A stretch of 62,070 bases of DNA from an uncultured bacterium (GCA_964508905.1 CAZDVO010000008.1:1-62070); one strand, 5' to 3'; numbered from the stretch's first letter, positions 9,887-59,115 are shown. Notes: generated by a model not told the origin, from the letters alone. A program made the numbers and translations.

Positions 9887-11587
9887 TTGGGATCGCAAAA
9901 GAGGAACGGCTTCTTGAACCTTAGATCGGTTATTTCCCTGCTTCTTTTTTTTCTGGCCGGCGTGTCGACGTGCTTCGCGGGGCAGAATGATTTCTTCTCA
10001 CGGACGGTTGTCCTTCCTTTGGTCACGGAACCCAAAACCTTCAATGTCCTCGTCGCTCAGGAAACTTCCAGCACCGAGGTGGCGCAGTACCTTTTCGAAG
10101 GATTGACGGCTTTTGATCCGCGGACTGGAGAGATACTCCCCAAGCTCGCGGCGACTTGGGAGCATTCCGCCGATGGCCTTGTCTGGACCTTTCACCTGAG
10201 AAACGGGGTCCGGTGGTCCGATGGCCGGCCGTTCACCTCGGGGGACGTTCTCTTTACGTTCGCGACCCTCTTTGATCCCGCGATCCCCAATAGCGCCCGG
10301 GATATCTTTATGATCCAGGGAAAACCGTTGCAGCTCCGCGCGCTTGATGAAACCACGGTGGAATTCCGTTTGCCCGCGCCCTTCGCGCCCTTTCTTCTCT
10401 CGCTTTCGCAGCCGATCCTTCCCAAGCATATGCTCGAACATGCCGTTCAGGACGGGACTTTTTCGAGCGCCTGGGGGCTAGGGGAAAGTCCGGAGCACAT
10501 TGTGGGGACGGGGCCGTTCCAACTCGCGAAAGTGCTGCCCGGCGAACGGGTGGAACTGATCCGGAACCCTTTCTACTGGCGGAAGGATGCCGCCGGGAAG
10601 CCGCTCCCGAAGCTCGACCGGATCGTGATGCCGATCGTGCCGAGTCCCGAAAATCAGTTGCTCCGCTTTCTGGATGGCGAGACAGATCTTCTTGTGATGC
10701 GCGGCACGGATTATCCGGTCCTGAAACCGCTGGAAAAGAAAAAGCGTTTCAGGATCTACCGGGCTGGGGCGTCGCTCGGGTCTTTTTTTGTGGCGGTGAA
10801 TCAGCAGGCGCGCGATTCCCAGAAAAGGCAGTGGTTTCAAAACCGTGATCTCCGGCGGGCGCTTTCCCATGCGATCGACCGCGCTTCCATGGCCGACATC
10901 GTCTTTAACCGGTTTGCCGTCAAACAATGCTCGCCCCTCAGCCCTTCGGTCCCGTTCTTTTATGACGATGAAGTGCCGTGTTATGACTATGCGCCAGGGA
11001 CGGCGAAGGACCTCCTGACCGAGGTCGTGGGTTTTCGGGACAAAGATAAAGATGGGATCCTGGAGGATGAGACGGGCCGTCCTCTGGAGATCGTCCTGGC
11101 GACCAATACGGAAGATCCCTCGCGGCTTCAGCTGGCGCAGATGATCCGCGAGGATTGGCGAAGGGTTGGGATCAAGGTGCATTTGCAGCCGATGGAGTTC
11201 AACGCGCTTGTGTCGAAACTGACCGTGACCCATGATTGGGACGCGGTGGTGATGGGGCTGACGGGTTCGGTCGACCCGCACTTTGGGGCGAATGTCTGGC
11301 TTTCTTCGGGGAATCTCCACTTCTGGAATCCGGGGGCGGGGAACGCGACCTACATCGAAGGCAAGGTGGACGCCCTTTTGGGAAAGGCCGCCGTAAGCCT
11401 CGACCGGGATCAGCGCAAAGCATATTACGATGAGTGGCAACGGATCGAAGCCGAAGAGTTACCGCTCATTCCCACGGTGCTGCCGGAAGTTCTTTATGCC
11501 GTGCGGGACCGTTTTGTCGCCGTGAATCCGACCGCGATCGCGGACCCGCTTTATCCGATCGAGGAGCTTGAGGTGAGGCCGTCATGA
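9887..11587 (+). CDS. Peptide/nickel ABC transporter substrate-binding protein (family 5); TTG start uncertain
   Basis: Signal-peptide-like N-terminus; EPKTFN, LFEGL, LRNGVRWSDGRPFTSGDV and VGTGPF motifs. Confidence 0.9.
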   Translation: MGSQKRNGFLNLRSVISLLLFFLAGVSTCFAGQNDFFSRTVVLPLVTEPKTFNVLVAQETSSTEVAQYLFEGLTAFDPRTGEILPKLAATWEHSADGLVWTFHLRNGVRWSDGRPFTSGDVLFTFATLFDPAIPNSARDIFMIQGKPLQLRALDETTVEFRLPAPFAPFLLSLSQPILPKHMLEHAVQDGTFSSAWGLGESPEHIVGTGPFQLAKVLPGERVELIRNPFYWRKDAAGKPLPKLDRIVMPIVPSPENQLLRFLDGETDLLVMRGTDYPVLKPLEKKKRFRIYRAGASLGSFFVAVNQQARDSQKRQWFQNRDLRRALSHAIDRASMADIVFNRFAVKQCSPLSPSVPFFYDDEVPCYDYAPGTAKDLLTEVVGFRDKDKDGILEDETGRPLEIVLATNTEDPSRLQLAQMIREDWRRVGIKVHLQPMEFNALVSKLTVTHDWDAVVMGLTGSVDPHFGANVWLSSGNLHFWNPGAGNATYIEGKVDALLGKAAVSLDRDQRKAYYDEWQRIEAEELPLIPTVLPEVLYAVRDRFVAVNPTAIADPLYPIEELEVRPS

Positions 11588-13580: not shown

Positions 13581-14290
13581 GCGCGCTGATCGAGGTCCAG
13601 GACGTGGTGCTCGCTTATCCTCGCGGCCCGAAGTTTGGCCCGCTCAGTTTTGAGATTCGGGACGGGGAGGCGCTGGCCCTTGTCGGCGGGTCGGGCGCCG
13701 GGAAGAGTACCGTGGTGCTGGCGTTGATGGATGTTTTGAAATTCAGAGGCGGTCGGAAATTGAAAGGCAAGATCCGTCTCCACTGTTCAAAAAAGGAGAT
13801 CGCTTATGTGCCGCAGGACCCGGCCGCGGCGTTGGACCCGCTTTTTACGATCGGGAACCAGATCCGGGAATTAGGCTGCTCCGAGACCGCGATCCGGGAC
13901 GCGTTGGAGAAGGTGCATCTGCCTCTGACACAGCTTCAGCTGAAAAACTATCCGCATGAGTTGAGCGGAGGCATGTTGCAGCGCCTGCTGATCGCGATGG
14001 CGCTGGTGCGGCGGCCGAAGCTCTTGATCGCCGACGAACCCACCTCCTCGCTTGATGTGATCCATCAGGCGGAGATCATGAAATTTTTTCACGCGGTCCT
14101 CGCGGAAGGGATCTCGATTCTTTTTATTACGCATCATCTGCCGCTAGCCATGGACCTTTGCTCGCGCATGGCGGTGATGTGCCAAGGCCAGATCGTCGAG
14201 ATCGGAAGCCCCCGGTCGATCTACGAAGCGCCTCAACACGCGTTCACAAAGCGGCTTCTGGCCGCGGTGCCGACCTTGGAGGTTGTGTGA
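13577..14290 (+). CDS. Peptide ABC transporter ATPase (OppD/DppD-like)
   Basis: GGSGAGKS, YPHELSGGMLQR, LIADEPT and FITHHL motifs. Confidence 0.92.
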   Translation: MSALIEVQDVVLAYPRGPKFGPLSFEIRDGEALALVGGSGAGKSTVVLALMDVLKFRGGRKLKGKIRLHCSKKEIAYVPQDPAAALDPLFTIGNQIRELGCSETAIRDALEKVHLPLTQLQLKNYPHELSGGMLQRLLIAMALVRRPKLLIADEPTSSLDVIHQAEIMKFFHAVLAEGISILFITHHLPLAMDLCSRMAVMCQGQIVEIGSPRSIYEAPQHAFTKRLLAAVPTLEVV

Positions 14291-46092: not shown

Positions 46093-46781
46093 ACTGGAGG
46101 CTGTTGCCGACGATCAGTGCGCCGATGCCGCTCCAAATGGCGCTTGATGAGACCCTGTTCCTAGCCCACAAACAAATCCCCCAGGAAGCCCAGCTGCGTT
46201 TTTACGTTTCACAAGGGCCCTGGATCAGTGTGGGGTATTCCTTTTGTGGCGACGAAGAACTTTCAAAGTCGGAGCTGGTGCGCCAGAATCCCGGGGTGCC
46301 TCTCTGCCGGCGCGTGACGGGCGGAGGATGCGTGCTCCACGGGGACGATCTGATCTTTTCGCTTGTGGCGCACTATGACGTTGAGCCGATGCGTACCGCG
46401 TTGGGTGCTGTGAAGGCGAGTTACGCCAAGATCCACGAAGCGGTTCGTGTGGGGCTTCAGTCGTGTGGCCTTGATCCGAGGTTCTATCAAGCCGAAGAGG
46501 GGCTTCCCAAAGGAAGCGACTGTTTTGATTTTCCCGTCGAAAGCGACCTTTCCTGGAGAGGCGTTAAGATCGCCGGAGGGGCTCAGAAACGTTCCGAGGG
46601 AGTGTTGCTGCACCATGAATCGATCGCGCTGCCGAAGGGTGTTGGAAGGGAACAGCTGATCGCGGCGATAACTCGCGGTATGGAAACGGTTTTCGGTATA
46701 ACCTTTGCCAAGACGGATCTTGATCCTGAAATTTATTTCCAAGCGGCAAATAAAGGACTACAGCCGATAGCCTATAGCTGA
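46089..46781 (+). CDS. Lipoate-protein ligase / octanoyltransferase (LipM/LplA-like)
   Basis: QMALDE, RRVTGGGCVLH, KIAGGAQKR motifs; follows the gcv genes. Confidence 0.88.
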   Translation: MNWRLLPTISAPMPLQMALDETLFLAHKQIPQEAQLRFYVSQGPWISVGYSFCGDEELSKSELVRQNPGVPLCRRVTGGGCVLHGDDLIFSLVAHYDVEPMRTALGAVKASYAKIHEAVRVGLQSCGLDPRFYQAEEGLPKGSDCFDFPVESDLSWRGVKIAGGAQKRSEGVLLHHESIALPKGVGREQLIAAITRGMETVFGITFAKTDLDPEIYFQAANKGLQPIAYS

Positions 46782-46838
46782 TAGCTAAAGCGGAAGCTGT
46801 GATTTTTTTCGCTAGAGGCTATTAGCCATGAGCTTTAG
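46758..46838. repeat. Heptamer-arm palindrome, family A (NNATAGC / GCTATNN)
   Basis: Left arm CTACAGC CGATAGC CTATAGC TGATAGC (46758-46785); right arm GCTAGAG GCTATTA GCCATGA GCTTTAG (46811-46838). Confidence 0.7.
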
Positions 46839-47229: not shown

Positions 47230-47291
47230 GGCAATGCTCAACGGTCAACGCGCAACGAAGCGCTCATTTGCGTTGTGCGTTGCGCGTTGCG
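47230..47291. repeat. Heptamer-arm palindrome, family B (NNCAACG / CGTTGNN)
   Basis: Left arm GGCAATG CTCAACG GTCAACG CGCAACG (47230-47257); right arm CATTTG CGTTGTG CGTTGCG CGTTGCG (47265-47291). Confidence 0.75.
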
Positions 47292-47306
47292 CTTGGAGTG
47301 AGAAAT

Positions 47307-49454
47307 ATGGCTCAAGACCTTCTCGCCGGCCTGAACCCGGCACAAAAGGAAGCCGTGACCTGGTCCCCGGTCCGTCCGTTGCTGATCCTGGCCGGCGCGG
47401 GGAGTGGCAAGACGCGCATCCTCACGCACCGGATCGCGTGGCTGATCGAACACGGAGTGCCCGCTTTTAACATCCTCGGGGTCACCTTCACCAATAAGGC
47501 CGCAGCCGAAATGCGGAACCGTATTGAGCGGCTCGTTTCACAGCGCGTCTGGGTGAGCACCTTCCACTCCACGTGTCTTCGTATCTTGCGCCAGGATGGT
47601 CCCGCGATGGATCTCGACAGGAATTTCATTATCTACGACGAGTACGACCAGCTCCAGGTCATCAAGGAATGTATCGCGGAGCTCAAATTGAGCGAGAAGG
47701 ATGTTAACCCCAAGGCGGTTCGGGAAGAGATCCAGAGGTCGAAAGATTTTCTGATCATGCCGGACCAGTATGCCGCCAAGGCGATGGAGCTTTTTCAGGA
47801 TCGCGTCGGAAAAGTCTATAAGCTGTATGAGAGTAAGATGCTGCGGCTTAAGGCTTGCGACTTTGGCGATCTGATCATGAAGACCGTACTTCTTTTTGAC
47901 CGGCATCCCGAGGTTCTGAGATCATGGCAGGATCGCTTTCAGCATGTCCTGATCGACGAATACCAGGACACGAACCACGCTCAATACCGGCTTGTGAAGT
48001 GCCTGGCCGCGGCCCGTCGCCAGATCACCGTGGTCGGCGACCCGGACCAGTCGATCTATGCCTGGCGCGGGGCCGATATCAAGAATATCCTGAACTTTGA
48101 GGCGGATTATCCCGACGCCGGGGCGATTCGCATGGAGCAGAACTACCGGTCGACGCCGGTGATCCTGAATGCGGCCAATCATCTGATCAAGAATAATCAA
48201 ATGCGTCGTCCCAAGGCCCTTTGGACCGAACAAAAGGGCGGGGCGAAGATCGAGCTCTACAATGCCGAAGACGAGATCTCTGAGGCGAAGTATGTGGTCG
48301 GGACCATCTTGAAGAATAGGGCTATGGGAAGGACTTTCGCCGAGCAGGTCGTTTTTTACAGGGTTCACGCGCAGTCGCGCGTGATGGAAGAGGAACTGAT
48401 GCGTTCGAATATCCCGTACAAGATCGTGGGCGGGACGCGTTTTTATGACCGCAAGGAGATCAAGGACATTATCGCGTACCTAAGGATCGTGGCCTACCCG
48501 CACGATGAGGTGAGCCTGAAGCGTGTCATCAATGTGCCGCCGCGAGGGATCGGCAAGAAAGCGCTCGAGACGCTTGATGGCGCAACGCGAAAAAGCCAGG
48601 ATGACGGAGGGCGGATGGCGGATGACGTAAAAGTCGAAGCTCCATCCTCCAGCCTCCATCCTCCACCCGGAACGTGGGATTCTGTGCTGTCCAATGTCGA
48701 GACGATCGAGGGGCTCACGCCGCGCGTCAAAAAGAGCCTTTCTGCGTTCTACGCCTGGCTGACGAAGCTTCGCCGGAAACAGCATGAAATGACGATTCAC
48801 GAGATCCTTGAAAGGATCCTGGAAGATACCGGTTACGTGACGGCGCTTGAGTCGGAGCGGACGCCCGAGGCGCAGGCCCGGCTTGAGAATATCGAGGAAT
48901 TCTACAGCGTGATCGAGAATTTTAATGAAAAGCTGGATGGAGGATGGAGGATGGAGGATGGCGATAAGCCAGGGACTGCGTCCTCCGCCCTCCACCCTCC
49001 GCCATCCGTTCTTATGGCGTTCCTGGATTCGATCGAGCTGGTGACCGATCTGGATGCGTGGGACCAGGGAACGAACGTGCTGACACTGATGACGCTCCAC
49101 ACCGCCAAAGGTTTGGAGTTCCCGATCGTTTATATGGTGGGGTTGGAAGAGGGGATCTTCCCGCATGTGAATTCCTTCGCAGGTTCTTCTGATGAGATCG
49201 AGGAAGAGCGGCGTCTGGCTTATGTGGGCATCACGCGGGCTCGCGAACGGCTCCATTTTTCCTACGCGACCGAACGGCGCATGTATGGCGCCACACATCA
49301 TAATCTTCCGTCCCGGTTCTTGACGGAGATCCCGTCCAACCTTTTGGACGCGCGTGTGTCCTTTTCCCGCAACAGTTTTCGCGATGAAGATGAGAACCAG
49401 GACCGCTACGGCTCCGTTCACGATCCCGATCCTCTCATCGAATTCGACGACTGA
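47307..49454 (+). CDS. pcrA: SF1 DNA helicase PcrA/UvrD (start ATG 47307)
   Basis: LNPAQ, AGAGSGKT, TFTNKAA, DEYQDTN, VGDPDQSIY, EQNYRS, MTLHTAKGLEF and EERRLAYVGITRA motifs; GGAG RBS at 47295. Confidence 0.96.
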   Translation: MAQDLLAGLNPAQKEAVTWSPVRPLLILAGAGSGKTRILTHRIAWLIEHGVPAFNILGVTFTNKAAAEMRNRIERLVSQRVWVSTFHSTCLRILRQDGPAMDLDRNFIIYDEYDQLQVIKECIAELKLSEKDVNPKAVREEIQRSKDFLIMPDQYAAKAMELFQDRVGKVYKLYESKMLRLKACDFGDLIMKTVLLFDRHPEVLRSWQDRFQHVLIDEYQDTNHAQYRLVKCLAAARRQITVVGDPDQSIYAWRGADIKNILNFEADYPDAGAIRMEQNYRSTPVILNAANHLIKNNQMRRPKALWTEQKGGAKIELYNAEDEISEAKYVVGTILKNRAMGRTFAEQVVFYRVHAQSRVMEEELMRSNIPYKIVGGTRFYDRKEIKDIIAYLRIVAYPHDEVSLKRVINVPPRGIGKKALETLDGATRKSQDDGGRMADDVKVEAPSSSLHPPPGTWDSVLSNVETIEGLTPRVKKSLSAFYAWLTKLRRKQHEMTIHEILERILEDTGYVTALESERTPEAQARLENIEEFYSVIENFNEKLDGGWRMEDGDKPGTASSALHPPPSVLMAFLDSIELVTDLDAWDQGTNVLTLMTLHTAKGLEFPIVYMVGLEEGIFPHVNSFAGSSDEIEEERRLAYVGITRARERLHFSYATERRMYGATHHNLPSRFLTEIPSNLLDARVSFSRNSFRDEDENQDRYGSVHDPDPLIEFDD
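48599..48668 (+). repeat. Heptamer-arm palindrome, family C (GGATGGA / TCCATCC), in frame inside pcrA
   Basis: GGATGAC GGAGGGC GGATGGC GGATGAC, 14-nt spacer, TCCATCC TCCAGCC TCCATCC TCCACCC. Confidence 0.8.
48935..49007 (+). repeat. Heptamer-arm palindrome, family C, second in-frame copy inside pcrA
   Basis: GGATGGA x3 GGATGGC (48935-48962), spacer, TCCTCCGCCCTCCACCCTCCGCCATCC (48981-49007). Confidence 0.82.
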
Positions 49455-49629
49455 TCGGCCTTTTTCGTTCCTTTCTCGCGGCCCCGCCCGTTCTGTCCCG
49501 TTCTTGAAATGGAACAGTATTTCCAAGGATCGATCGACTTCTACTTCATAATTCTTCAAAATAATCCCCCGATAGCTATATCTCTTTTGAAATGAATGGG
49601 TTACGAACCAAGCTGTTTTTGCCGTAGGC

Positions 49630-49658
49630 TTGAAATATATTAGAACTTAATGTATCTT
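49630..49658 (+). promoter_or_regulatory. Sigma70-type promoter of the giant-protein gene, in an AT-rich intergenic tract
   Basis: TTGAAA (49630-49635), 17-nt spacer, TATCTT (49653-49658). Confidence 0.5.
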
Positions 49659-49711
49659 TTTAATAAGGAGAGATAAATAAAATCATATATAACTGTAAAA
49701 CATAGCAATCT

Positions 49712-52700
49712 ATGACAAACACAGCTAAAAAAATCATAAGCTTGGTGGTGCTCGTCTGCTTTGCGATGACGCAAACGGTGTCCGCAAATCCCGGGGCGAG
49801 TATTGAGATCGCGACGCGTTATGAAACGCCCTCGTTCCTCCAGATCGATATCCCGGCAGAACTCGCGACGCTTGACGGGCTTTTTGAAGCGCCTCCGCGC
49901 CCTGATCCGCGTCTGGTGCTTCATGTTCAGAACGCGCACGCGAATTACGGCGCGCAGATGAAGATCAAAGAGCTGCTCCAATACCTGCACAAGACGTATG
50001 GTTTCAAAACGATCTTCGTCGAAGGCGCTTCCGAAGACCTGAATCCCGATTACCTCCGCATGTTCCCGGACAGGGAACGGAACATGAAACTCGCCGACTT
50101 TCTCATGCAACAGGGGGAATTGACGGGCGCGGAACTTTTCATCCTGGAGCAGGATGGCGGAGGGCGGAGGGCGGAGGGCGCAAAAAATCAGGATGACCGG
50201 GGGGAGAAAGCTGATGGCGTATATGCCGAGACCCCATCCTCCATCCTCCATCCTCTATCCGAGCCCAGTGTTCGGGCTCACGGGATCGAAAATGCGGAGC
50301 TCTATCGCGAGAACTACGACGCGCTCAAAAAAGTTTTCGGTTCGGGAAAGACCGTTACGCGTTATCTCGGAGGCTATGAGTCGCGGCTCGATGGCTTGGC
50401 CTCCAAAGTTTTTTCGCCGGAACTCCGTAAACTCCTGGGCGATTGGAAAAAATTCGAAAAAGGACAGCGCGAATTCATGCCCTATGTTCACGCGCTCACG
50501 GGGAATGCCAAAAAGATCCTGGGCGTTGACCTTGAGAGTTTGCTCGCGCAGGTCGAATGGCCGCAGATCTCGCGTCTTTTGCAGCTTCAGGTGATGGAAA
50601 AGGAACTTCAGACCGAGAAGGCTCTCGCTGAGAAAGATAAGCTGATCACGTTCCTGACGGCGAAACGGGTGACGCCGGAGCTGCTGGCGGCCATCAAGGA
50701 TTTTCAGGGGCAGCGGGTGAGCGTGCTCCGCGGGAAGTCGGATGCCGTTCCGGCCGGCCTGCAACCCCGGGACCTAATGGAAAAACTGGTCCTTGAAGCC
50801 GGCCCGAAGGGATTCCGCTTTCAGGATTATCCGGCATTTAGTATCTACGCGGGGTATCTCATCCTCAAGAACGAACTTGATCCGAAGCGGCTTTTTGAGG
50901 AGATCCGCACTGTCTTTGCCCGTATGTTGGATACCCTAGCCAAGACGCCTCGCCAGCGGGAACTTCTTGCGATCTATCGTGACGAAGAACTTGTTCGTAA
51001 ATTGCTCAACCTTGAACTGCCGCGCCGGGAATGGCGCGAGGCGGTGGCGAAACAGCAGGAGTTGGGAATGGATGTGATGGTCGAGCGGCTGAAGACGATC
51101 GGCGCACTCGTTAGCAAAGAATCCAATCTGCCGCTTTCCAGTTTTGAGACGAAAAAAGTGAGCGAGGCGTTCCGCCAGGAAGTTATGGGGATCCAAGCCG
51201 CCGCGTTCGGGTTCTACGATGCCGCACGGCGTCGTGAAGATGTGTTCTACCAGAAGATCGAGGAAGTGATGACCCGCAACGCGGAGTCGAAGGCCGTGCT
51301 CGTCACCGGCGGTTTTCACACGGACGGCATCACCGATCTTCTTCGTGAGCATCAGGTGAGCTATGGGATCCTCACCCCGCGCCTTCTCGAAAAATCCGAC
51401 GAGAATCTCTATCGCTCCGTCATGTTGCAGAACAAACAAAGCACGTTTGAACTGTCTTATCTGGAGGCTGTTTCGCGATTGCAGGGATATCTCGCCCAAG
51501 GGGGGCAAGTCGGGGAGGTGGAGGTGGTGGCTAGTTTGGAGGCCGTGCTTCGAGCGATCGGTCACGCCGGCGATTTGGGGAATATTGCGGACGCCATCAA
51601 GATCTTCAATGAGTCCTCTTACGCGATCAATGGGAAAATCCAGATCGATCCGAATCCGATCAGCAATGATGAAAAGGGCCGTCCCGTCTACCAAGTCCTC
51701 CATCGGTCGGAAGCGAGACGTGATGATCTCCACGGTGTAGCGATGCCCTGGTATTCCCACGCGGTTGAGACGGGCATGCGTCTTTCCGGTAATCTTTTTT
51801 TTGATCGGGGTGTGGGGATGATGAATGATCTTTTAAGACGAACGGATCTGACGCCGGAGATCCTGGAACGGGCTTTTTGGGGGTGGCATCAGGTCATGGA
51901 TGTGGCTCAAGGACAGAAAGATATTTATCGTGTTCAACCGGAAGCGATTCAGCAGCTTTTTGCGAAAGTCCTGTTCGATGCATCCCAGCCGGTGACTCGT
52001 GAAAATGTGTATGAGAAAGTGGCGGAGCTTTACTATGAATTGCACCGGATGCAGCCTTTTGTTGAAGGCAACCACCGTGCGATAAGCCTGCTCGTGAACT
52101 TTGTCTTTCTGAAGGTTGGGGTTCCGGCCTTTTATCTGAACCAGCGGAATACTCCGAATTACGACGAGATGCGAAAGCTGATCCGTCTGCCAGTCCAGAC
52201 ACGACGGAATGCTGACTGGGGGAAGGTGTCGAGCGATCGTTTAAGAGCGGCATTCAAAAATGCCGGGATGGAACTTCCCGTGAGGCCGGTTCGAGAGACG
52301 TCGGCTTTGAACGATGATAATCTCAAGAAGGTCATAGCCTCCTTCTTTATGATCGAAGCTGCAACGATCCGCTCGGAATCGCGGACGGGGGAGGTCTTAA
52401 CGGAGTCGCGTGTGCAATCCGCCGCGGACTCGTTGGAACTCCAAATAGAGGCGGTTCGTCGCGAAAACGTAGGTAAGCCGACTTGGATGAGAGCCCCCAA
52501 TAGTAGCGTCACGAATCTCAGCGAGCGTCATTGGCTTTTAGTGCGCACCCCTCAATTTAAGAGCTTTTTCGGTGACTGGGAGCATGACCCCCAAAATGCT
52601 TCCAAGGTTTTAGATGAAAATGGAGAGCCGCTCTTAGTCTGGCACGGCTCGCAAGCGGCGGCGGCATTCGATGCGTTTGACCCCGAAGCAAAACGCATTA

Positions 52701-55700
52701 CAGATATCGGAGATCTCGGATGGGGCAGTTATTTTACGGGCTCTCGCGAAACGGCGGAAGTTTTTACCTGGCGGCTCAACGCCACACAAGGACCGTTGGT
52801 GAGTGCGTTTTTAAACATTCGAAATCCTGCGAGCGTTGAGACGGTCCAGAAGAATGGCGGGAATGGTAAGAGCCGTACTCCAGAAGCGGCGAAGTCGCTG
52901 GTCCAGACACTTACAAATTTGGGACATGACGGCGCCTTTCGCACACCCTTGGAAGTGGTGTTCGGCAAGCCAGTTACCGAATGGGTGGTCTATGACAATG
53001 CCAATATTTTTATGGTCTCACCCGATGTTCTTTCAGAAGAGACTCCCACTATCGACCGTCAGAATGTTCCCGCTCGTGTGGAGATGCGGACGATCGAGCA
53101 GACAAAGTTATCCCTCGATGGAGGGACGCTGCAGGTTCCTTCCATTGCTCCTGGGGCCGGGATTCAGATGGTCGTCGGGAAAGATGCTGAGTTCCAGAAA
53201 GCCCGCTTGGAATCGCGGCAAAAGACGGTTTCGAAGCGTGAGAAGCTCCTGCAAACGGTGGCGGTTGCGGGTTTCTTTGCGTTCTGGGCTGGTTTCCCCG
53301 ATCTTTCCCTGGCGCGTGAGAAGACGGCCTATGTTCCCTATGTCGCCCGACAAGAAAAAGCTCCATCCGAACCCTCTCGCGTGGCCCCGGGGGTAGAGCT
53401 GTTGGATTTCACGAAGTTGTGGGCCGCTGTCATGTCACAAGGTGTTTTGCGAGGGGTTACCGAGGAAGATCTTAGACAGTCGATTGACTATTCAAACCGT
53501 CCAGATATCCGTGCGCAGGTTCAAGCCGCTTATGCGATGCTTATTCGTGATGGATTGCTGCCGGAAGGGACCAAGTTTCCTGTGGTTTTACTCAAAGGGA
53601 TTGATGAATCCCTTTTTAGCAAGCTTGGCATATCGGCGGATAGCTTTGCTGTTGCCCCGAGGGGAAGTGGCGTTGTCTTTGTCCCCCGGGTTGCTTGGGA
53701 TCGACTGGATCCCGATGTGTCAAAAGCAGCCTGGCTCTTGGTGAAGGCCGGGCATGAGGCGCGGCACCATATGGATCTTCTTAATGATCCGAACATCTCT
53801 ACGCTGCGTACGGAAGCCAACGCGTACGCGGTTACGGCTCGCTCGATGGAGTTGGCGGGTTATCCGGAGGAGCAATTGATCTTGCAGAGACAGGTGGCAT
53901 CGGCGTTCAAAGTCTTGGCGGATAGCGAAGAGGCGGTCTCGCGGATCTTTGGAAAAGGAACCCTTTTTCGAAATATTAATTACGGAAATATAGCCGTCGA
54001 CGGAAGTGGCTTTGTCCGTGTTGAGCTTTTGGATGAGGTTAACGGAAAGAAAATAATGATCGGCGTCGATCTTAACGCTCCGTTGGGCAAGCAGATATTC
54101 GAGCTTGTTGCAAAACCGGCAGAACAATCATCAAATGCAGAGACTCAGACTCATGCGGTCTATGCCTCTCGAGAGAGTCTTGGAGGAGTGCTTACTCCGC
54201 TGACGGATATTCCCTCAAGTATGGTTTTGGCCGTTCTGGGGCTTATGGCCGCCGTTCCTCGTCGGGGGACGCGCGCCGGTCAAACAAGTGCCGCGCCCTC
54301 TAAATCGCAGGAGACGAAAAAGAAGTTGGCGGCCGTGCGATCCGAGTCGAGGGCCCAGGCTGCTGCGGAGGGGGAGGAGCTTACGTTGGATCAGGTCCGC
54401 AAGGAGTTTGCGGCGACCTTCAGGCACGAATTCGCGGATGATTTGACGGTACTTGCCGGTTTGCCCCAGTTGTTAATTCAGCCGGAGCTTTTTCCCGAGG
54501 CCCGTCGCACAAGCATAGATCTTGGGCGCAAGTCTCTTAAAGCTCTTCGCGCACAGGTGGAGCGACTCCGCCAGGAACAGGGTGAGAATTTTGTGCGAGC
54601 GCCTAACCATGGGGCTACCGACGGGTCCTTTTTGCTGGTGGATTCCCACACGCAAAGTTATGGGAACAACTATCATCAGCTGAGCCAACAGTGGCACCAG
54701 TATGCCCGCATGGAAGTTCTAGCTCTTGTGAACCATAAGCAGTTAGCGGCCAATTTAGAGATGGTTATTGATAAAGCCGAGGAGTGGTTGAATAAGGTGG
54801 CGGCGAAGCTTGCTCAAGGTGAAAAACTTGCCGATGCTGATCTGAAGGATGGGGACGATTTCGGGGAAACGTTCCTTTATGTACTTGATCAGCTGGGGCG
54901 AGGGGAATTCGAGTCCTGGGTCGGCGAGCCCCAGAGTGAGGGCGGTTCGCTGCAGGTGAACGAGGTCGGGACGCCTGCGCTACCGATGGTGTCGGAAAAC
55001 CATGGCTACTGGGTTGATGCGATCACGAATCTGGCGAGGCAGTACGGGCGGACTTTGAGAAGGCGGACTTTGAGCGAGGAGCGTCTGACGGTCGTGGAGA
55101 TCCCGGGCAGGGACCGTTATTTACCTGGAGCGTTCCATTTGTTGAATGCCGAAGGAAAGGTCATCGGTGTCAGCCTAGTGGAAGATATCATTTTCCGGGC
55201 CGTTGATCCTAAAACGGGTGAGCCGATTGATGACGAGGTGATCAAACGAGCTGATGGTGAATCCATGAGAGATGAGCTGAATGCCACCTGGGCGCTCGAG
55301 GAAGCCTGGGCGCTCAAGGAAGCCGACAAATATGGGTATCTGCGCGCGTGGGAAGCGGGTGTGATGGCGAATGGACAAGGTTTTTGGGCGCGGCTCAAAG
55401 GCCCGAAAAAAGGCCAAGATCTTAGCCAGGCAAATCCACGGCTTTCGGTCATAGATCTTTTTAAAGGCTTAGCTGGCGCGGGCGAGAGGTTTGTCCAACT
55501 ACATCAAGCAGGCCTTATCCATGGAGATATTAAGCCCGGGAACATTCTTCTTGGGGAAGATCCGAAAGGAGCCCTAGACGTTTCAAATTCATACGTGATC
55601 GATCTCACAGGGGTTCAGCAATTGGGGGCTAACCCGGACGCGGAAACAGTGTTGGGAACGACGTGGATGAACCCCCTTATAAAAATGGAGGGACGTCCGG

Positions 55701-57460
55701 TGTTGCTGCAAGGGTGGTTGCGGACCCAAGAGGCTGATAACTTTCAATTTGCTATGACGATCGTGAGTCTCCTTCACCAGAAAGCGCGTCTTCCCGGGGC
55801 GAATGCCCTTTCGCCGGACGAGGCTGCTCGTTTGGAGACGAAATACCTTGGACGGATCTTTACCCGCTTTCCCGGCCAGAGTGCTCGCCGTATGTTCATT
55901 CAAAATAAAGACATGGAAAATTTTGCCTATGATATTTATTTTCAACATCCCGAGATATTTGGCGTCAGACCGATGTCTGAGATCCCCACGATGGCCCAAC
56001 TGACCCAAATGCTCAAGGAAGATCTTGCCGCGATGGAGGCCTCGGCGGCGGGGCGCTCCGAATCCCGTGCGGAAACGCGGACGGAGGGAACGACGGCGGA
56101 GGATTTTGACGAATTTGTTCAGGGGTATTGGCGGGAGAATGATTTGGGCAGTGAGGAGGATCGCTTGGCTGCCGCGAAGTTCTATTATTCGAGCGATTCG
56201 GGCAGGGCGATTCAAAAGGGAGGCATCACGGCTTCGATGTTTTCTGTATTTATAAGGGCCATGGGATTCAGAGGAAAGGACAGCGCAGCCAAGACTTTCG
56301 CAGCCATGAGTGCGCTTCGGAAACTTCGGCCTCTCTATCCTGAGGTGAAATTGTCGACAGCCATCGACATGCTTTCCAAGGGCGAATTTGATTTTAATAA
56401 ACTTGGGAATAGTGGCGAGGTTGCGCTTGCAAGCTTTCTGCCAGCGGTCAGGACTATTTTTTTGAGGAACGGGATCAAGGCGCAGGTTCTGAAAGTTGGT
56501 GTTGATGCGGCGGCCAAGGCAGCAGAAACCAAGACTGCCGCTGAGCTGGAGGCGGAATTTGTTGAAGCGATGCAGGCTCGAATGCCGGCGGCGGAGACGG
56601 CGATCGATCTCAGAAGTGTTCTAAAGGAACTTTCGTCTGAGGAACAAAAGTCTCTGGAATTCAAAGTGGCTGAGGTGAGGAACCGCTTGGGATTGGCAGA
56701 AGTATCGGATGAGGTGGTTCGTGTGGCGCTTTTGGTGGGTGGGATCCTGGATCTGAGCAAAGCGGATTTGCCTGAAGCTAAACGGCGGATGATGCTTCTG
56801 GCGGCCACGATCGGCGGGCAGGCGACGGTGGCTTTACGAGATGCCTTCAAGAAAGCTTATGAAGGTCAGAATATTCAATTGCCTGTGAGCGATGCGGTGG
56901 GGTTGGTGGTGGATATCCTTGATGCGATGCCCTCGTCCAAGAAGGTCGAGGCGGTGAAGGGGATGCTGGCCTTGAATCCGAACGCGCATTTTGCCTGGAT
57001 CGTTCCTGCCGGGGTGGATGTGTCGGAAACGGTTCAGAAGATTACCGAATGGGGGAACCGTAATGATGTGAAAGTTGAGGGGCGCCTTCTTGTGAGCGGG
57101 GTCGGAGCCAGTCTTGCGAACAGCATCAACAGCGTGAAAAAGAGGATCAAACGTATCTACGCGTTTGTTGTTATCGGGCGCTCGGAAGATCTGGCTGACC
57201 TGAATGTGGAACAGGCGGAACTGATTGAGCGGGGGAACGAGATCCCTCAAGACGTTGCGGATGTGGCGGGGATAGTGGTGTCCGTCGAGCGGTCCCAGGA
57301 ACTTGTCTATGGGGGCGAGAAATTTGGTGAGAAAACCGCTCAGGCCATCAATGCGAAAAAAGGGAAACGTTTTTCTTTCAACCTTAACGGACTTCTCAAT
57401 ATTGCCAAGAGCCTCGCAGCCCAACTTCAGGGCCTCCTGAGCCTCGAAAAATCCGCTTAG
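49712..57460 (+). CDS. Giant (2582 aa) secreted multidomain protein: TIKI/ChaN-like N-terminal domain, Fic, polyvalent-type ART, HExxH peptidase, Ser/Thr kinase and an unknown C-terminal module
   Basis: Single open frame; Sec-type signal (KKIISLVVLVCFAMTQTVSA); motifs QNAH/VEG/TGGFH, QPFVEGNHR, VLDENGEPLLVWHG/GSYFT, HEARH..E and HGDIKPGN. Confidence 0.9.
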   Translation: MTNTAKKIISLVVLVCFAMTQTVSANPGASIEIATRYETPSFLQIDIPAELATLDGLFEAPPRPDPRLVLHVQNAHANYGAQMKIKELLQYLHKTYGFKTIFVEGASEDLNPDYLRMFPDRERNMKLADFLMQQGELTGAELFILEQDGGGRRAEGAKNQDDRGEKADGVYAETPSSILHPLSEPSVRAHGIENAELYRENYDALKKVFGSGKTVTRYLGGYESRLDGLASKVFSPELRKLLGDWKKFEKGQREFMPYVHALTGNAKKILGVDLESLLAQVEWPQISRLLQLQVMEKELQTEKALAEKDKLITFLTAKRVTPELLAAIKDFQGQRVSVLRGKSDAVPAGLQPRDLMEKLVLEAGPKGFRFQDYPAFSIYAGYLILKNELDPKRLFEEIRTVFARMLDTLAKTPRQRELLAIYRDEELVRKLLNLELPRREWREAVAKQQELGMDVMVERLKTIGALVSKESNLPLSSFETKKVSEAFRQEVMGIQAAAFGFYDAARRREDVFYQKIEEVMTRNAESKAVLVTGGFHTDGITDLLREHQVSYGILTPRLLEKSDENLYRSVMLQNKQSTFELSYLEAVSRLQGYLAQGGQVGEVEVVASLEAVLRAIGHAGDLGNIADAIKIFNESSYAINGKIQIDPNPISNDEKGRPVYQVLHRSEARRDDLHGVAMPWYSHAVETGMRLSGNLFFDRGVGMMNDLLRRTDLTPEILERAFWGWHQVMDVAQGQKDIYRVQPEAIQQLFAKVLFDASQPVTRENVYEKVAELYYELHRMQPFVEGNHRAISLLVNFVFLKVGVPAFYLNQRNTPNYDEMRKLIRLPVQTRRNADWGKVSSDRLRAAFKNAGMELPVRPVRETSALNDDNLKKVIASFFMIEAATIRSESRTGEVLTESRVQSAADSLELQIEAVRRENVGKPTWMRAPNSSVTNLSERHWLLVRTPQFKSFFGDWEHDPQNASKVLDENGEPLLVWHGSQAAAAFDAFDPEAKRITDIGDLGWGSYFTGSRETAEVFTWRLNATQGPLVSAFLNIRNPASVETVQKNGGNGKSRTPEAAKSLVQTLTNLGHDGAFRTPLEVVFGKPVTEWVVYDNANIFMVSPDVLSEETPTIDRQNVPARVEMRTIEQTKLSLDGGTLQVPSIAPGAGIQMVVGKDAEFQKARLESRQKTVSKREKLLQTVAVAGFFAFWAGFPDLSLAREKTAYVPYVARQEKAPSEPSRVAPGVELLDFTKLWAAVMSQGVLRGVTEEDLRQSIDYSNRPDIRAQVQAAYAMLIRDGLLPEGTKFPVVLLKGIDESLFSKLGISADSFAVAPRGSGVVFVPRVAWDRLDPDVSKAAWLLVKAGHEARHHMDLLNDPNISTLRTEANAYAVTARSMELAGYPEEQLILQRQVASAFKVLADSEEAVSRIFGKGTLFRNINYGNIAVDGSGFVRVELLDEVNGKKIMIGVDLNAPLGKQIFELVAKPAEQSSNAETQTHAVYASRESLGGVLTPLTDIPSSMVLAVLGLMAAVPRRGTRAGQTSAAPSKSQETKKKLAAVRSESRAQAAAEGEELTLDQVRKEFAATFRHEFADDLTVLAGLPQLLIQPELFPEARRTSIDLGRKSLKALRAQVERLRQEQGENFVRAPNHGATDGSFLLVDSHTQSYGNNYHQLSQQWHQYARMEVLALVNHKQLAANLEMVIDKAEEWLNKVAAKLAQGEKLADADLKDGDDFGETFLYVLDQLGRGEFESWVGEPQSEGGSLQVNEVGTPALPMVSENHGYWVDAITNLARQYGRTLRRRTLSEERLTVVEIPGRDRYLPGAFHLLNAEGKVIGVSLVEDIIFRAVDPKTGEPIDDEVIKRADGESMRDELNATWALEEAWALKEADKYGYLRAWEAGVMANGQGFWARLKGPKKGQDLSQANPRLSVIDLFKGLAGAGERFVQLHQAGLIHGDIKPGNILLGEDPKGALDVSNSYVIDLTGVQQLGANPDAETVLGTTWMNPLIKMEGRPVLLQGWLRTQEADNFQFAMTIVSLLHQKARLPGANALSPDEAARLETKYLGRIFTRFPGQSARRMFIQNKDMENFAYDIYFQHPEIFGVRPMSEIPTMAQLTQMLKEDLAAMEASAAGRSESRAETRTEGTTAEDFDEFVQGYWRENDLGSEEDRLAAAKFYYSSDSGRAIQKGGITASMFSVFIRAMGFRGKDSAAKTFAAMSALRKLRPLYPEVKLSTAIDMLSKGEFDFNKLGNSGEVALASFLPAVRTIFLRNGIKAQVLKVGVDAAAKAAETKTAAELEAEFVEAMQARMPAAETAIDLRSVLKELSSEEQKSLEFKVAEVRNRLGLAEVSDEVVRVALLVGGILDLSKADLPEAKRRMMLLAATIGGQATVALRDAFKKAYEGQNIQLPVSDAVGLVVDILDAMPSSKKVEAVKGMLALNPNAHFAWIVPAGVDVSETVQKITEWGNRNDVKVEGRLLVSGVGASLANSINSVKKRIKRIYAFVVIGRSEDLADLNVEQAELIERGNEIPQDVADVAGIVVSVERSQELVYGGEKFGEKTAQAINAKKGKRFSFNLNGLLNIAKSLAAQLQGLLSLEKSA
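50152..50260 (+). repeat. Heptamer-arm palindrome, family C, in frame inside the giant-protein gene
   Basis: GGATGGC GGAGGGC x3 (50152-50179), 54-nt spacer, CCATCCT x3 CTATCC (50234-50260). Confidence 0.82.
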
Positions 57461-59045: not shown

Positions 59046-59048
59046 TAG

Positions 59049-59115
59049 CGCAACGCACAACGCGCAAAGTTTAACGCAACGCTTTTCCGTCGAGCGTTGC
59101 CCGTTGCGCATTGAG
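59049..59115. repeat. Heptamer-arm palindrome, family B, second copy
   Basis: Left arm CGCAACG CACAACG CGCAAAG TTTAACG (59049-59076); right arm CGTCGAG CGTTGCC CGTTGCG CATTGAG (59088-59115). Confidence 0.75.

Follow-up and report, generated by a model that had tools for sequence, protein, structure and literature searches.

Can a short, dispersed repeat become part of essential proteins, and by what route? This question is raised by three inverted repeats, here called E1, E2 and E3, that lie in frame within two neighbouring genes on a metagenome-type contig of an uncultured bacterium (GCA_964508905.1 CAZDVO010000008.1:1-62070). The whole stretch of 62,070 nt is referred to here as the window, and its host was named through the best relatives of its UvrD/PcrA helicase, which are Candidatus Omnitrophota. 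A first-pass annotation had placed three copies of one repeat family at 48599-50260 and proposed that a process like that of the Rickettsia palindromic elements (RPEs) is creating new protein segments in this lineage. The placement is exact: E1 and E2 lie in pcrA, and E3 lies in a gene for a giant protein. Taking all of the evidence together, E1-E3 are probably copies of a dispersed, non-coding hairpin repeat that would spread, pass a survival filter, be translated as disordered loops and be remodelled in place.

All three elements are built alike: a loop separates a G-rich arm of GGA[T/G]GG[A/C] heptamers from a C-rich arm made up of ~4 heptamers complementary to them. E1 (48599..48668, + strand) consists of a left arm at 48599-48626 (units GGATGAC GGAGGGC GGATGGC GGATGAC), a 13-nt loop at 48627-48639 and a right arm at 48640-48668, and it encodes PcrA residues 432-454 (DDGGRMADDVKVEAPSSSLHPPP). 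E2 (48935..49007, + strand) has a left arm at 48935-48961, (GGATGGA)x3.9, a 20-nt loop at 48962-48981 and a right arm at 48982-49007, and it encodes residues 544-567 (DGGWRMEDGDKPGTASSALHPPPS). E3 (50152..50260, + strand), in which the arms at 50152-50180 and 50234-50260 enclose a long loop of 53 nt (50181-50233), encodes residues 148-183 of the giant protein. Tandem Repeats Finder (TRF) assigned a period of 7 and 3.7-4.1 copies to all six arms. The elements are 70-109 nt long and start with (C)GGATG; the canonical GGATGGN element, of ~75 nt, comprises ~4 GGATGGN heptamers, an A-rich loop and ~4 complementary heptamers. A degenerate two-heptamer pattern matched the window 19 times, 18 of these inside E1-E3, whereas shuffled sequences gave an expectation of 1.64 matches and 0 of 100 shuffles reached 19.

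Inverted arms are 73-96% complementary between copies. The left arm of E2 is 96% complementary to the right arm of E3, and the right arm of E2 is 94% complementary to the left arm of E3, which exceeds the pairing of each element's own arms; long-range pairing or recombination between the two is conceivable, as they lie in adjacent genes at a distance of ~1.2 kb. An inversion of E2 relative to E1 and E3, once read from these values, was withdrawn, as the loops (GTAAAAG, GATAAG, GCAAAAAA) are all sense-oriented. What differs between E1/E3 and E2 is how the GGATGGA and GGAGGGC variants are assigned to the two arms. Folded as RNA, the coding copies form hairpins of only moderate quality (z = -2.1 for E1, -3.4 for E2 and -0.8 for E3, relative to dinucleotide shuffles). 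Their two arms carry different variants (GGATGGA against the complement of GGAGGGC), so that ~5/7 positions pair.

The host of E1 and E2, pcrA (47307..49454, + strand), encodes a superfamily 1 (SF1) helicase of the UvrD/PcrA type, with 715 amino acids (aa) from the ATG at 47307 (Pfam UvrD-helicase, 1.2e-87; UvrD_C, 6.5e-72). Its closest solved relative is G. stearothermophilus PcrA (1PJR, E = 7e-176). The host of E3 is a gene for a 2582-aa protein (49712..57460, + strand) with a hydrophobic N-terminal stretch and a conserved N-terminal domain of ~420 aa; this domain has 4549 homologues at E <= 1e-3, in proteins reaching 7498 aa. An ART-PolyVal ADP-ribosyltransferase domain is also present, and a Fic-like stretch scores 22.5 bits, slightly below the Pfam cut-off. 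Judged by its domains, the 2582-aa protein appears to be polyvalent and toxin-like. Omnitrophota have been reported to carry giant genes such as this one.

The claim that the segments are repeat-derived inserts was borne out when orthologues were aligned, since the sites are empty in most of them. DNA was compared with related loci (among them L001-L003, L204-L206 and the RecG loci L207 and L208), each no longer than 22 kb. At PcrA site 1, the position of E1, most of 120 aligned orthologues read ..EAEARGKTW.. and 25 have extra sequence; the site is empty in most orthologues (..AAHGK directly followed by TW..), and the DNA of L003 is empty there. Among these orthologues the filled site is restricted to one clade and scattered others, and the inserts are missing from solved PcrA/UvrD proteins. 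PcrA site 2, the position of E2, is a variable linker at which the window, L002 and L003 hold the same 73-nt element with identical boundaries, and L001 has a GGCGTAC-type element instead of GGATGGN. Translation and the orthologue alignment both place the two PcrA inserts between conserved blocks, as first described: one after PRGIGKKALETL, the other between ENIEEF..NEK and LMAFLDSIEL. For the giant protein, most alignments among the 150 matches listed are split into two at query residues ~147 and 186, which is E3, and among 66 aligned homologues of the N-terminal domain most lack any insert at this site (typically ..YLMDAP-KDVKAIGIE..). Two additional copies, G2 and G3, are present in the orthologue from L001 at places where the window is empty. 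Orthologous copies at the same codon occur in independent JGI, NCBI and ENA assemblies.

The PcrA inserts map to 1PJR residues ~426-445, directly after the RGIG motif, and ~524-535, both of which we take, by the published domain limits, to be in domain 2B. In an AlphaFold2 model of PcrA (mean predicted local distance difference test score (pLDDT) of 80), residues 435-456 and 544-567 are coil; mean pLDDT in 10-residue blocks is 53-66 over E1 and 44-55 over E2, and the flanking helices are more confident. Both PcrA inserts are thus predicted to be disordered loops, and the suggestion that they be mapped on such a model has been answered by low-confidence coil at each. Four more distant Omnitrophota PcrAs (P0058, P0078, P0092 and P0104) have repeat-like peptides of other kinds at these two sites (..NLDSRFRGNDN.., ..VIARSEATKQS.., ..RPEGPKNLKRDPSP..), which resemble what hairpin repeats widespread in uncultured bacteria would encode. 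The two PcrA loops seem to accept any small palindrome.

How the elements are read is constrained by their period. Translation reproduces the peptides quoted for the three copies (DDGGRMADD..APSSSLHPPP, DGGWRMEDG..ASSALHPPPS and DGGGRRAEG..TPSSILHPLS), the reading frames of pcrA and the giant gene are both uninterrupted, and the first G of E1, E2 and E3 falls in each case at codon position 3. The first-pass annotation had taken this shared phase to be the cause of the alike arm peptides, and this does not hold. Because three 7-nt units make 21 nt, an array runs through all frames and encodes the same cyclic heptapeptide in each: (GGATGGA)n reads GWRMEDG, DGGWRME or MEDGGWR, and its complement gives cyclic SSILHPP. 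The element is also quasi-palindromic, with the order G-arm then C-arm on both strands. The likeness of the arm peptides is automatic and is evidence of nothing.

The phase itself is nevertheless shared by all eight readable GGATGGN copies in the window and L001-L003, which represent five independent sites (PcrA sites 1 and 2; giant-protein sites G1, G2 and G3). Frame +0 is closed by stops in 8/8 copies, and some copies remain open in frame +2 and in several reverse frames, so that stop codons as the sole cause of the shared phase were ruled out and offer only a partial explanation. In our reading, the phase and orientation held in common reflect a survival filter acting on the encoded peptide, plus copying from copies that were already translatable. 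In other metagenomes, the GGATGGN hairpin is found in frame in other phases. An A-run in the loop lies on the sense strand, encoding Lys, in 15 of 17 genic hairpins of all types, whereas intergenic copies have no such bias. The segments are presumably translated into protein; tryptic and junction peptides derived from the inserts by sequence are SQDDGGR, MADDVK, VEAPSSSLHPPPGTWDSVLSNVETIEGLTPR and LDGGWR.

A filter against stop codons is evident in the arrays themselves. Consensus heptamers are stop-free in 37 of 40 genic arrays and, on both strands, in 5 of 16 intergenic arrays (Fisher p = 8e-6), where random heptamers at 55% GC would be stop-free with a frequency of 0.74 by the genic measure and 0.58 by the both-strand measure. 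In the in-frame right arm (CGTTGAG)n at 2758-2783 of L205, the sole altered unit (CGTAGCA) is the one that would read CGT TGA G, and it looks like selection removed the in-frame stop from this repeat unit.

Evidence of copying comes from the further copies in the L001 giant-protein orthologue. G2 and G3 share a composite unit of ~123 nt, in which GGATGGA arms flank a loop that itself contains a second, nested palindrome; the ~95 inner nt are nearly identical (3 mismatches), the right arms diverge more, the flanks are unrelated, and identity falls sharply outside CGGATG...CATCC. Loops of copies at different sites have GTAAAAG..GATCTGTC in common. The nested palindrome, CCCTCACCYCAACCCTCTCCC-nnn-GGGAGAGGGCAGGGTGAGGGGG, is unrelated to the heptamer arms, encodes ..PSPQPSPxGRGQGEG.. 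(PSPxPSPxGRGxGEG type), and lies in heptamer-hairpin loops at 13670-13735 and 13952-14018 of L001 and at ~2920-2990 of L206. Similar peptides (SPGERVGEGD and PSPIPLPQGEDKGEG) are present in the PcrA site-1 inserts of P0017, P0039 and P0062.

PcrA site 1 also records a succession of elements. L204 and L205 have a complete GCGCAAC-type element at the same codon, while the window and L001 have one GCGCAAC-type unit plus the loop start (GGCGCAACGCGAAAAA), with the GGATGGN element immediately 3' of it, and in L002 this remnant precedes a GACCACA-type right arm. With the remnant and loop start lying 5' of the newer elements, the later elements therefore sit in the loop of an earlier one. Site occupancy is more stable than heptamer identity: a neighbour-joining ordering of PcrA contains a nine-sequence clade in which site 1 is always filled and three heptamer types are interleaved. 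At least four heptamer types occur among close homologues at giant-protein site G1, the E3 site, where L001 has a GGAGTAC-type element and the window GGATGGN. At site 2 of L205, the right arm is a perfect (CGAGTCC)x4.3 and the left arm has diverged, and neighbouring heptamer types may be one base apart (e.g., GGCGGAT and GGCAGAT).

E1-E3 are one variant in a broad class of hairpins with strictly period-7 heptamer arms, which uses many heptamers and is both genic and intergenic. The syntenic loci of close relatives are rich in ACGACTA, CCAAGTA, GGCGTAC, GACCACA, GACTAGA, CGAGTCC and other arrays. The close Omnitrophota clade has 40 period-7 runs in 163 kb (24.6 per 100 kb), and across the same 163 kb there are no runs of periods 4-6 or 8-11. 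The control set derives from a scan for PcrA loci that was dominated by the universal DEYQDTNH motif, and it comprises three more distant Omnitrophota-type loci (25 kb; 0 period-7 runs, 0 per 100 kb) and 77 PcrA loci from other phyla (1.44 Mb; 11 runs, 0.8 per 100 kb). In three verrucomicrobial loci the density is 25 period-7 runs per 100 kb. Of 56 scored runs, 40 are within genes. An A-run directly after the left arm opens most loops, irrespective of the heptamer, and this shared feature suggests one backbone with fast-changing arms.

The GGATGGN hairpin is not confined to Omnitrophota. An exact-pattern scan of metagenome contigs found it in at least 120 contigs, from which 80 loci with a GC content of 45-72% were retrieved; no match was found in viral contigs, and an Rfam scan of the elements gave only sub-threshold, generic hairpin (miRNA) matches. 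Six of the genes that host it elsewhere were verified as real, namely those for a Ser/Thr kinase, two histidine kinases, a PIG-L deacetylase, RecG and an Lhr-type helicase; in five of them a Pfam domain spans both sides of the insert, and the Lhr-type helicase has three copies, located between domains. Kinases with such inserts come from soil metagenomes. In verrucomicrobial RecG, 120 of 120 orthologues (>=80% identity) have a heptamer-derived insert of ~25 aa at one codon, between QTGSRK and IFVGTHAL, with many heptamer types and a nearly constant length. The idea of an RPE-like process making protein segments in this lineage thus stands in that the inserts are real and behave as RPEs do, and falls short as to the lineage, since other metagenomes and RecG of Verrucomicrobiota are affected too.

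Several related arrays were noted in passing. The verrucomicrobial RecG gene in L207 has a second in-frame hairpin, (GTTGCAA)4 ... (AACCTTC)4, at 10576-10665, upstream of the universally occupied site, and more hairpins with ATTTACG, AAATGAA and AGGGTCG units lie elsewhere in this 22-kb locus. In the RecG orthologue of L208 (8147-8230), (AACATYC)5 and (CAACAAT)3 are non-complementary, with a small separate palindrome between them, and occupied sites are therefore not always hairpins. A direct triple of ATCTCAA/TCAAATT in the glycine-cleavage P-protein gene is conserved in four genomes (L001 6941-6962, L002 2885-2907, L003 7049-7071 and L204 6990-7014); an inverted partner is not obvious, and the triple may represent a genic array that is old and fixed. 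A search of a 5.8-billion-protein collection with the consensus-insert peptide returned only 13 small open reading frames (ORFs) of 37-76 aa and missed the known PcrA orthologues, and it is therefore useless as a census of host proteins. The 13 (P0121-P0133) are public "hypothetical proteins", e.g., MEDGGWRMEDGGWR... and MEDGGWRMEDGGWRMEDGGWR...SSILHPPSSILYP; from their sequences, they are almost certainly spurious ORFs that start from the ATG inside GGATGGA, in hairpin copies outside real genes.

We therefore favour the following sequence of events as the probable one. Copies of the hairpin repeat would reach new places by copy-and-paste or by ectopic conversion, with a mobilising machinery that we infer, and the loops of existing hairpins would be preferred targets. 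Genic survivors would be those placed in surface loops that permit them, with a length divisible by three, heptamers stop-free on the sense strand, and an element loop that reads as hydrophilic residues (A-run to Lys). They would be translated as disordered, low-complexity loops (cyclic GWRMEDG, a K-rich stretch, cyclic SSILHPP), which are probably tolerated rather than useful. The arms would then be altered by 7-nt slippage and by arm-to-arm homogenisation, so that occupancy of a site persists through the turnover of its heptamer type.

Several observations weigh against this account. The loops of GGATGGN hairpins in other metagenomes are mutually unrelated across the 80 loci, and the conserved unit may be the arms only. 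The RecG pattern looks more like turnover in place than repeated insertion. No direct repeat evident as a target-site duplication borders E1-E3, L001 G2 or G3, with the view limited by the divergence between filled and empty sequences, and no transposase is found in the precomputed Pfam labels of the related loci, the other ORFs of the window and loci having had no transposase screen. Arm conservation is a further difficulty: at site 2, a comparison among the window, L002 and L003 gives 85-96% identity for the left arm (23-26 of 27 positions), 75-89% for the right arm (21-25 of 28) and 33-78% for the loop, whereas fourfold-degenerate sites of pcrA are 44-54% identical between the window, L001, L002 and L003. 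Peptide-level selection is insufficient to explain this, because the identity spans all codon positions, and passive "tolerated junk" does not explain it either. It implies constraint at the nucleotide level or continuing homogenisation; unbiased homogenisation should not slow consensus drift, and three readings remain, namely nucleic-acid constraint, repeated re-conversion from other copies, or recent replacement. A plain "insertion" reading is thus right in that the sites are empty in most orthologues, and is incomplete in that occupied sites persist, heptamer types change, elements nest and arms are over-conserved.

Among the rivals, the likeliest is an origin in place, without transposition, in which weakly constrained linker-coding DNA gains a heptamer microsatellite by 7-nt replication slippage, an inverted partner then appears whose complementarity is preserved through template switching within the molecule (quasipalindrome correction), and the families are drifting states of one resident structure. 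Such a process would account for the repetition of period 7 alone, which fits 7 nt as the preferred slippage unit (a proposal cited in PMC4679880), for sites that are always occupied while heptamers change (RecG, 120/120 at constant length; PcrA site 1 throughout one clade), for the separate homogenisation of the two arms at site 2 of L205, and for heptamer types one base apart, such as GGCGGAT and GGCAGAT. However, there are clean full/empty contrasts at four sites, the same heptamer type and loop motif recur at several unlinked sites of one genome, a composite unit with its nested palindrome stands at two sites with unrelated flanks, and the same types are intergenic as well. Unbiased homogenisation also predicts neutral drift of the consensus, yet the arms are 75-96% identical where fourfold sites are ~45% identical. 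We consider this origin rather unlikely. It is less probable still that the elements are kept for a function, a view compatible with a mobile origin. As nucleic acid, the element might act as an mRNA hairpin or a two-tetrad G-quadruplex (G4) that influences how stable the mRNA is, whether translation pauses or how the product folds co-translationally, or it might be bound by a protein that recognises heptamer arrays; as protein, it might serve as a flexible loop that tunes the regulatory 2B domain. Arms conserved at all three codon positions, far above fourfold sites, would be expected of a nucleic-acid function, arms of ~4 units resemble G4-forming GGGNATC heptamer repeats (PMC4692102), and intergenic copies lie between genes and, at pcrA, directly upstream of its ribosome-binding site. 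The two inserts of PcrA are located in 2B, which is said in the UvrD/PcrA literature to regulate helicase activity. Against this, close orthologues have no inserts or have unrelated heptamers at the same place, the coding copies are mediocre hairpins (E3, z = -0.8), the peptides are modelled as low-confidence coil, and the same insert occurs in very different host proteins. (GGATGGA)x4 offers GG tracts only, and hence a two-tetrad G4 at best, and the G-quadruplex was rejected as a general explanation since most sister heptamers lack G-runs (e.g., ACGACTA, GCGCAAC and CCAAGTA).

Two further explanations would deny that new protein segments exist at all. Removal of the segments before the mature protein is formed, in the manner of an intron or intein, is very improbable: neither group I or II introns nor any other Rfam family match the elements, their 70-110 nt are far below the size of a self-splicing intron or intein, and the frame-keeping lengths and stop-free heptamers of the genic copies would be needless if these were excised. 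Chance low-complexity sequence or an assembly artefact might be suspected in a metagenome-type contig, in which repeats can mis-assemble, but we give it practically no credence, given the excess of pattern matches (19 against 1.64 expected), the orthologous copies at the same codon in the three independent sets of assemblies, and the intact reading frames. The mobile hairpin repeat, remodelled after its arrival, thus remains the account that we prefer.

Among known systems, the closest in behaviour are the RPEs, short palindromes of ~105-146 bp that lie in frame in housekeeping genes of Rickettsia (Ogata et al. 2000, as summarised in PMC10969869 and PMC3184786). Common to both are palindromic repeats that are intergenic as well as in frame in unrelated housekeeping genes with the host frame left open (PMC10969869, PMC3184786). 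Each family also has a recognisable peptide, positions are compatible with the fold, and several families occur per genome. E1-E3 are palindromes capable of forming hairpins, lie in frame in open ORFs, and occupy a fold-tolerant place that is empty in most orthologues. They differ in their size (70-109 nt), their hosts (Omnitrophota and Verrucomicrobiota), their strict 7-nt arms, their nesting and the turnover of heptamer type. RPEs are not known to be built from tandem heptamers. By analogy, E1-E3 would parallel RPEs in their way of working and would not be members of an RPE family, set apart as they are by host, size and arm build, rather than by sequence comparison.

Bacterial MITEs (miniature transposable elements with inverted repeats) and small repeats in genes (ERIC, BOX, Anabaena MITEs, Nezha) are non-autonomous inverted repeats of ~50-400 bp that can likewise form in-frame fusions (PMC10969869, PMC2229807). 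MITEs are, however, defined by terminal inverted repeats that match a parent insertion sequence (IS) and by target-site duplications; inverted repeats are present here, but the arms are most of the element, a heptamer microsatellite, and not short termini. Repetitive extragenic palindromes (REPs) and REPINs, which go with REP-associated tyrosine transposases (RAYTs), are 20-40 nt long and carry a GTAG or CGTC tag (PMC3116915, PMC3733652). They are similarly short, imperfect palindromes, dispersed in high copy number (PMC3116915, PMC3733652), whereas the present elements are 70-109 nt, often intragenic, start with (C)GGATG and lack the GTAG/CGTC tag that marks a REP. No RAYT gene was seen in the genome fragments covered (the 62-kb window and loci of up to 22 kb). 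By analogy with REPs, hairpin-dependent mobilisation by a Y1 transposase would be a plausible route of spread for heptamer hairpins.

The arms themselves resemble heptanucleotide simple sequence repeats (SSRs), which include cyanobacterial STRR (short tandemly repeated repetitive) sequences, GGGNATC of Xanthomonas and Nostoc (PMC4692102), and TAACTGA of Beggiatoaceae and cyanobacteria (PMC4679880). As described in these papers and in Mrazek's survey as cited there, such SSRs have 2-6 copies, with ~4 preferred, many heptamers per genome and a patchy phylogeny, and 7-nt slippage has been proposed for them (PMC4692102, PMC4679880). Tandem 7-nt units in ~4 copies are found here as well (TRF, 3.7-4.1). 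Those repeats, however, are direct, mostly intergenic and under-represented in genes, while here the arrays form inverted pairs around a loop and are often genic and in frame. Small dispersed repeats (SDR) of Nostoc (Elhai et al. 2008, Genome Res 18:1484) are reportedly 21-27 nt long and intergenic, and are said to insert within other repeats, including heptameric ones, so as to be nested. In the literature searched, which did not extend to that 2008 study, we came across no account of genes being colonised by inverted heptamer arrays, and none of these sequences or of Omnitrophota heptamers. The finding is a combination of two known things, in-frame palindromic repeats and heptanucleotide microsatellites. 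Tentatively, and short of a firm expectation, these hairpins may form a repeat class undescribed in that literature: strict 7-nt-array hairpins, common in Omnitrophota and Verrucomicrobiota (~25 per 100 kb), nesting in each other's loops, maintained at the nucleotide level and continually rewriting loops of essential proteins (PcrA, RecG, kinases).

Three other heptamer arrays lie between genes of the window. A hairpin of GCGCAAC/GCGTTGC heptamers at 47237..47298 has the same architecture as E1-E3 and folds well as RNA (-33.8 kcal/mol, z = -2.85); it stops 9 nt 5' of the pcrA ATG and overlaps a GGAG Shine-Dalgarno-like stretch. The mechanical ORF start of pcrA, a TTG at 47268, sits within this hairpin, and the homologous 715-aa PcrA in the protein collection begins at 47307; the TTG start is probably spurious. 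A second GCGCAAC-type hairpin lies at 59048..59109 (z = -2.08), and an AGCCGAT/AGCTGAT (AGCYGAT) run, whose inverted partner is only partial and which ranks as the weakest in the set, at 46758..46830 (z = -1.7). In the close relative P0002, a 123-aa gene with 23S_rRNA_IVP / bAvd Pfam matches lies directly upstream of pcrA. Avd-like proteins go with diversity-generating retroelements.

In-frame colonisation of housekeeping genes by palindromes has hitherto been best documented in Rickettsia (PMC10969869). The same outcome is found here in free-living, uncultured bacteria of the Planctomycetes-Verrucomicrobia-Chlamydiae (PVC) group, with a different and very regular architecture. Inserts would be tolerated because a 7-nt array is frame-independent, three units being 21 nt, and because genic heptamers are stop-free; if this is true, frame independence together with the many heptamers that are stop-free on both strands would make the architecture pre-adapted to survive in genes. 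If its maintenance reflects a dedicated enzyme or synthesis in 7-nt steps, this would be new biology. In practice, gene calling and alignment would improve, as spurious small ORFs such as MEDGGWRMEDGGWR... can be recognised, and the segments mark permissive insertion sites in PcrA, RecG and kinases. The hairpins offer a system for asking how protein loops are born from non-coding repeats, why bacterial microsatellites favour 7 nt, and what holds repeats homogeneous while synonymous sites saturate. They suggest that selfish or slippery DNA may be able to remodel even essential proteins.

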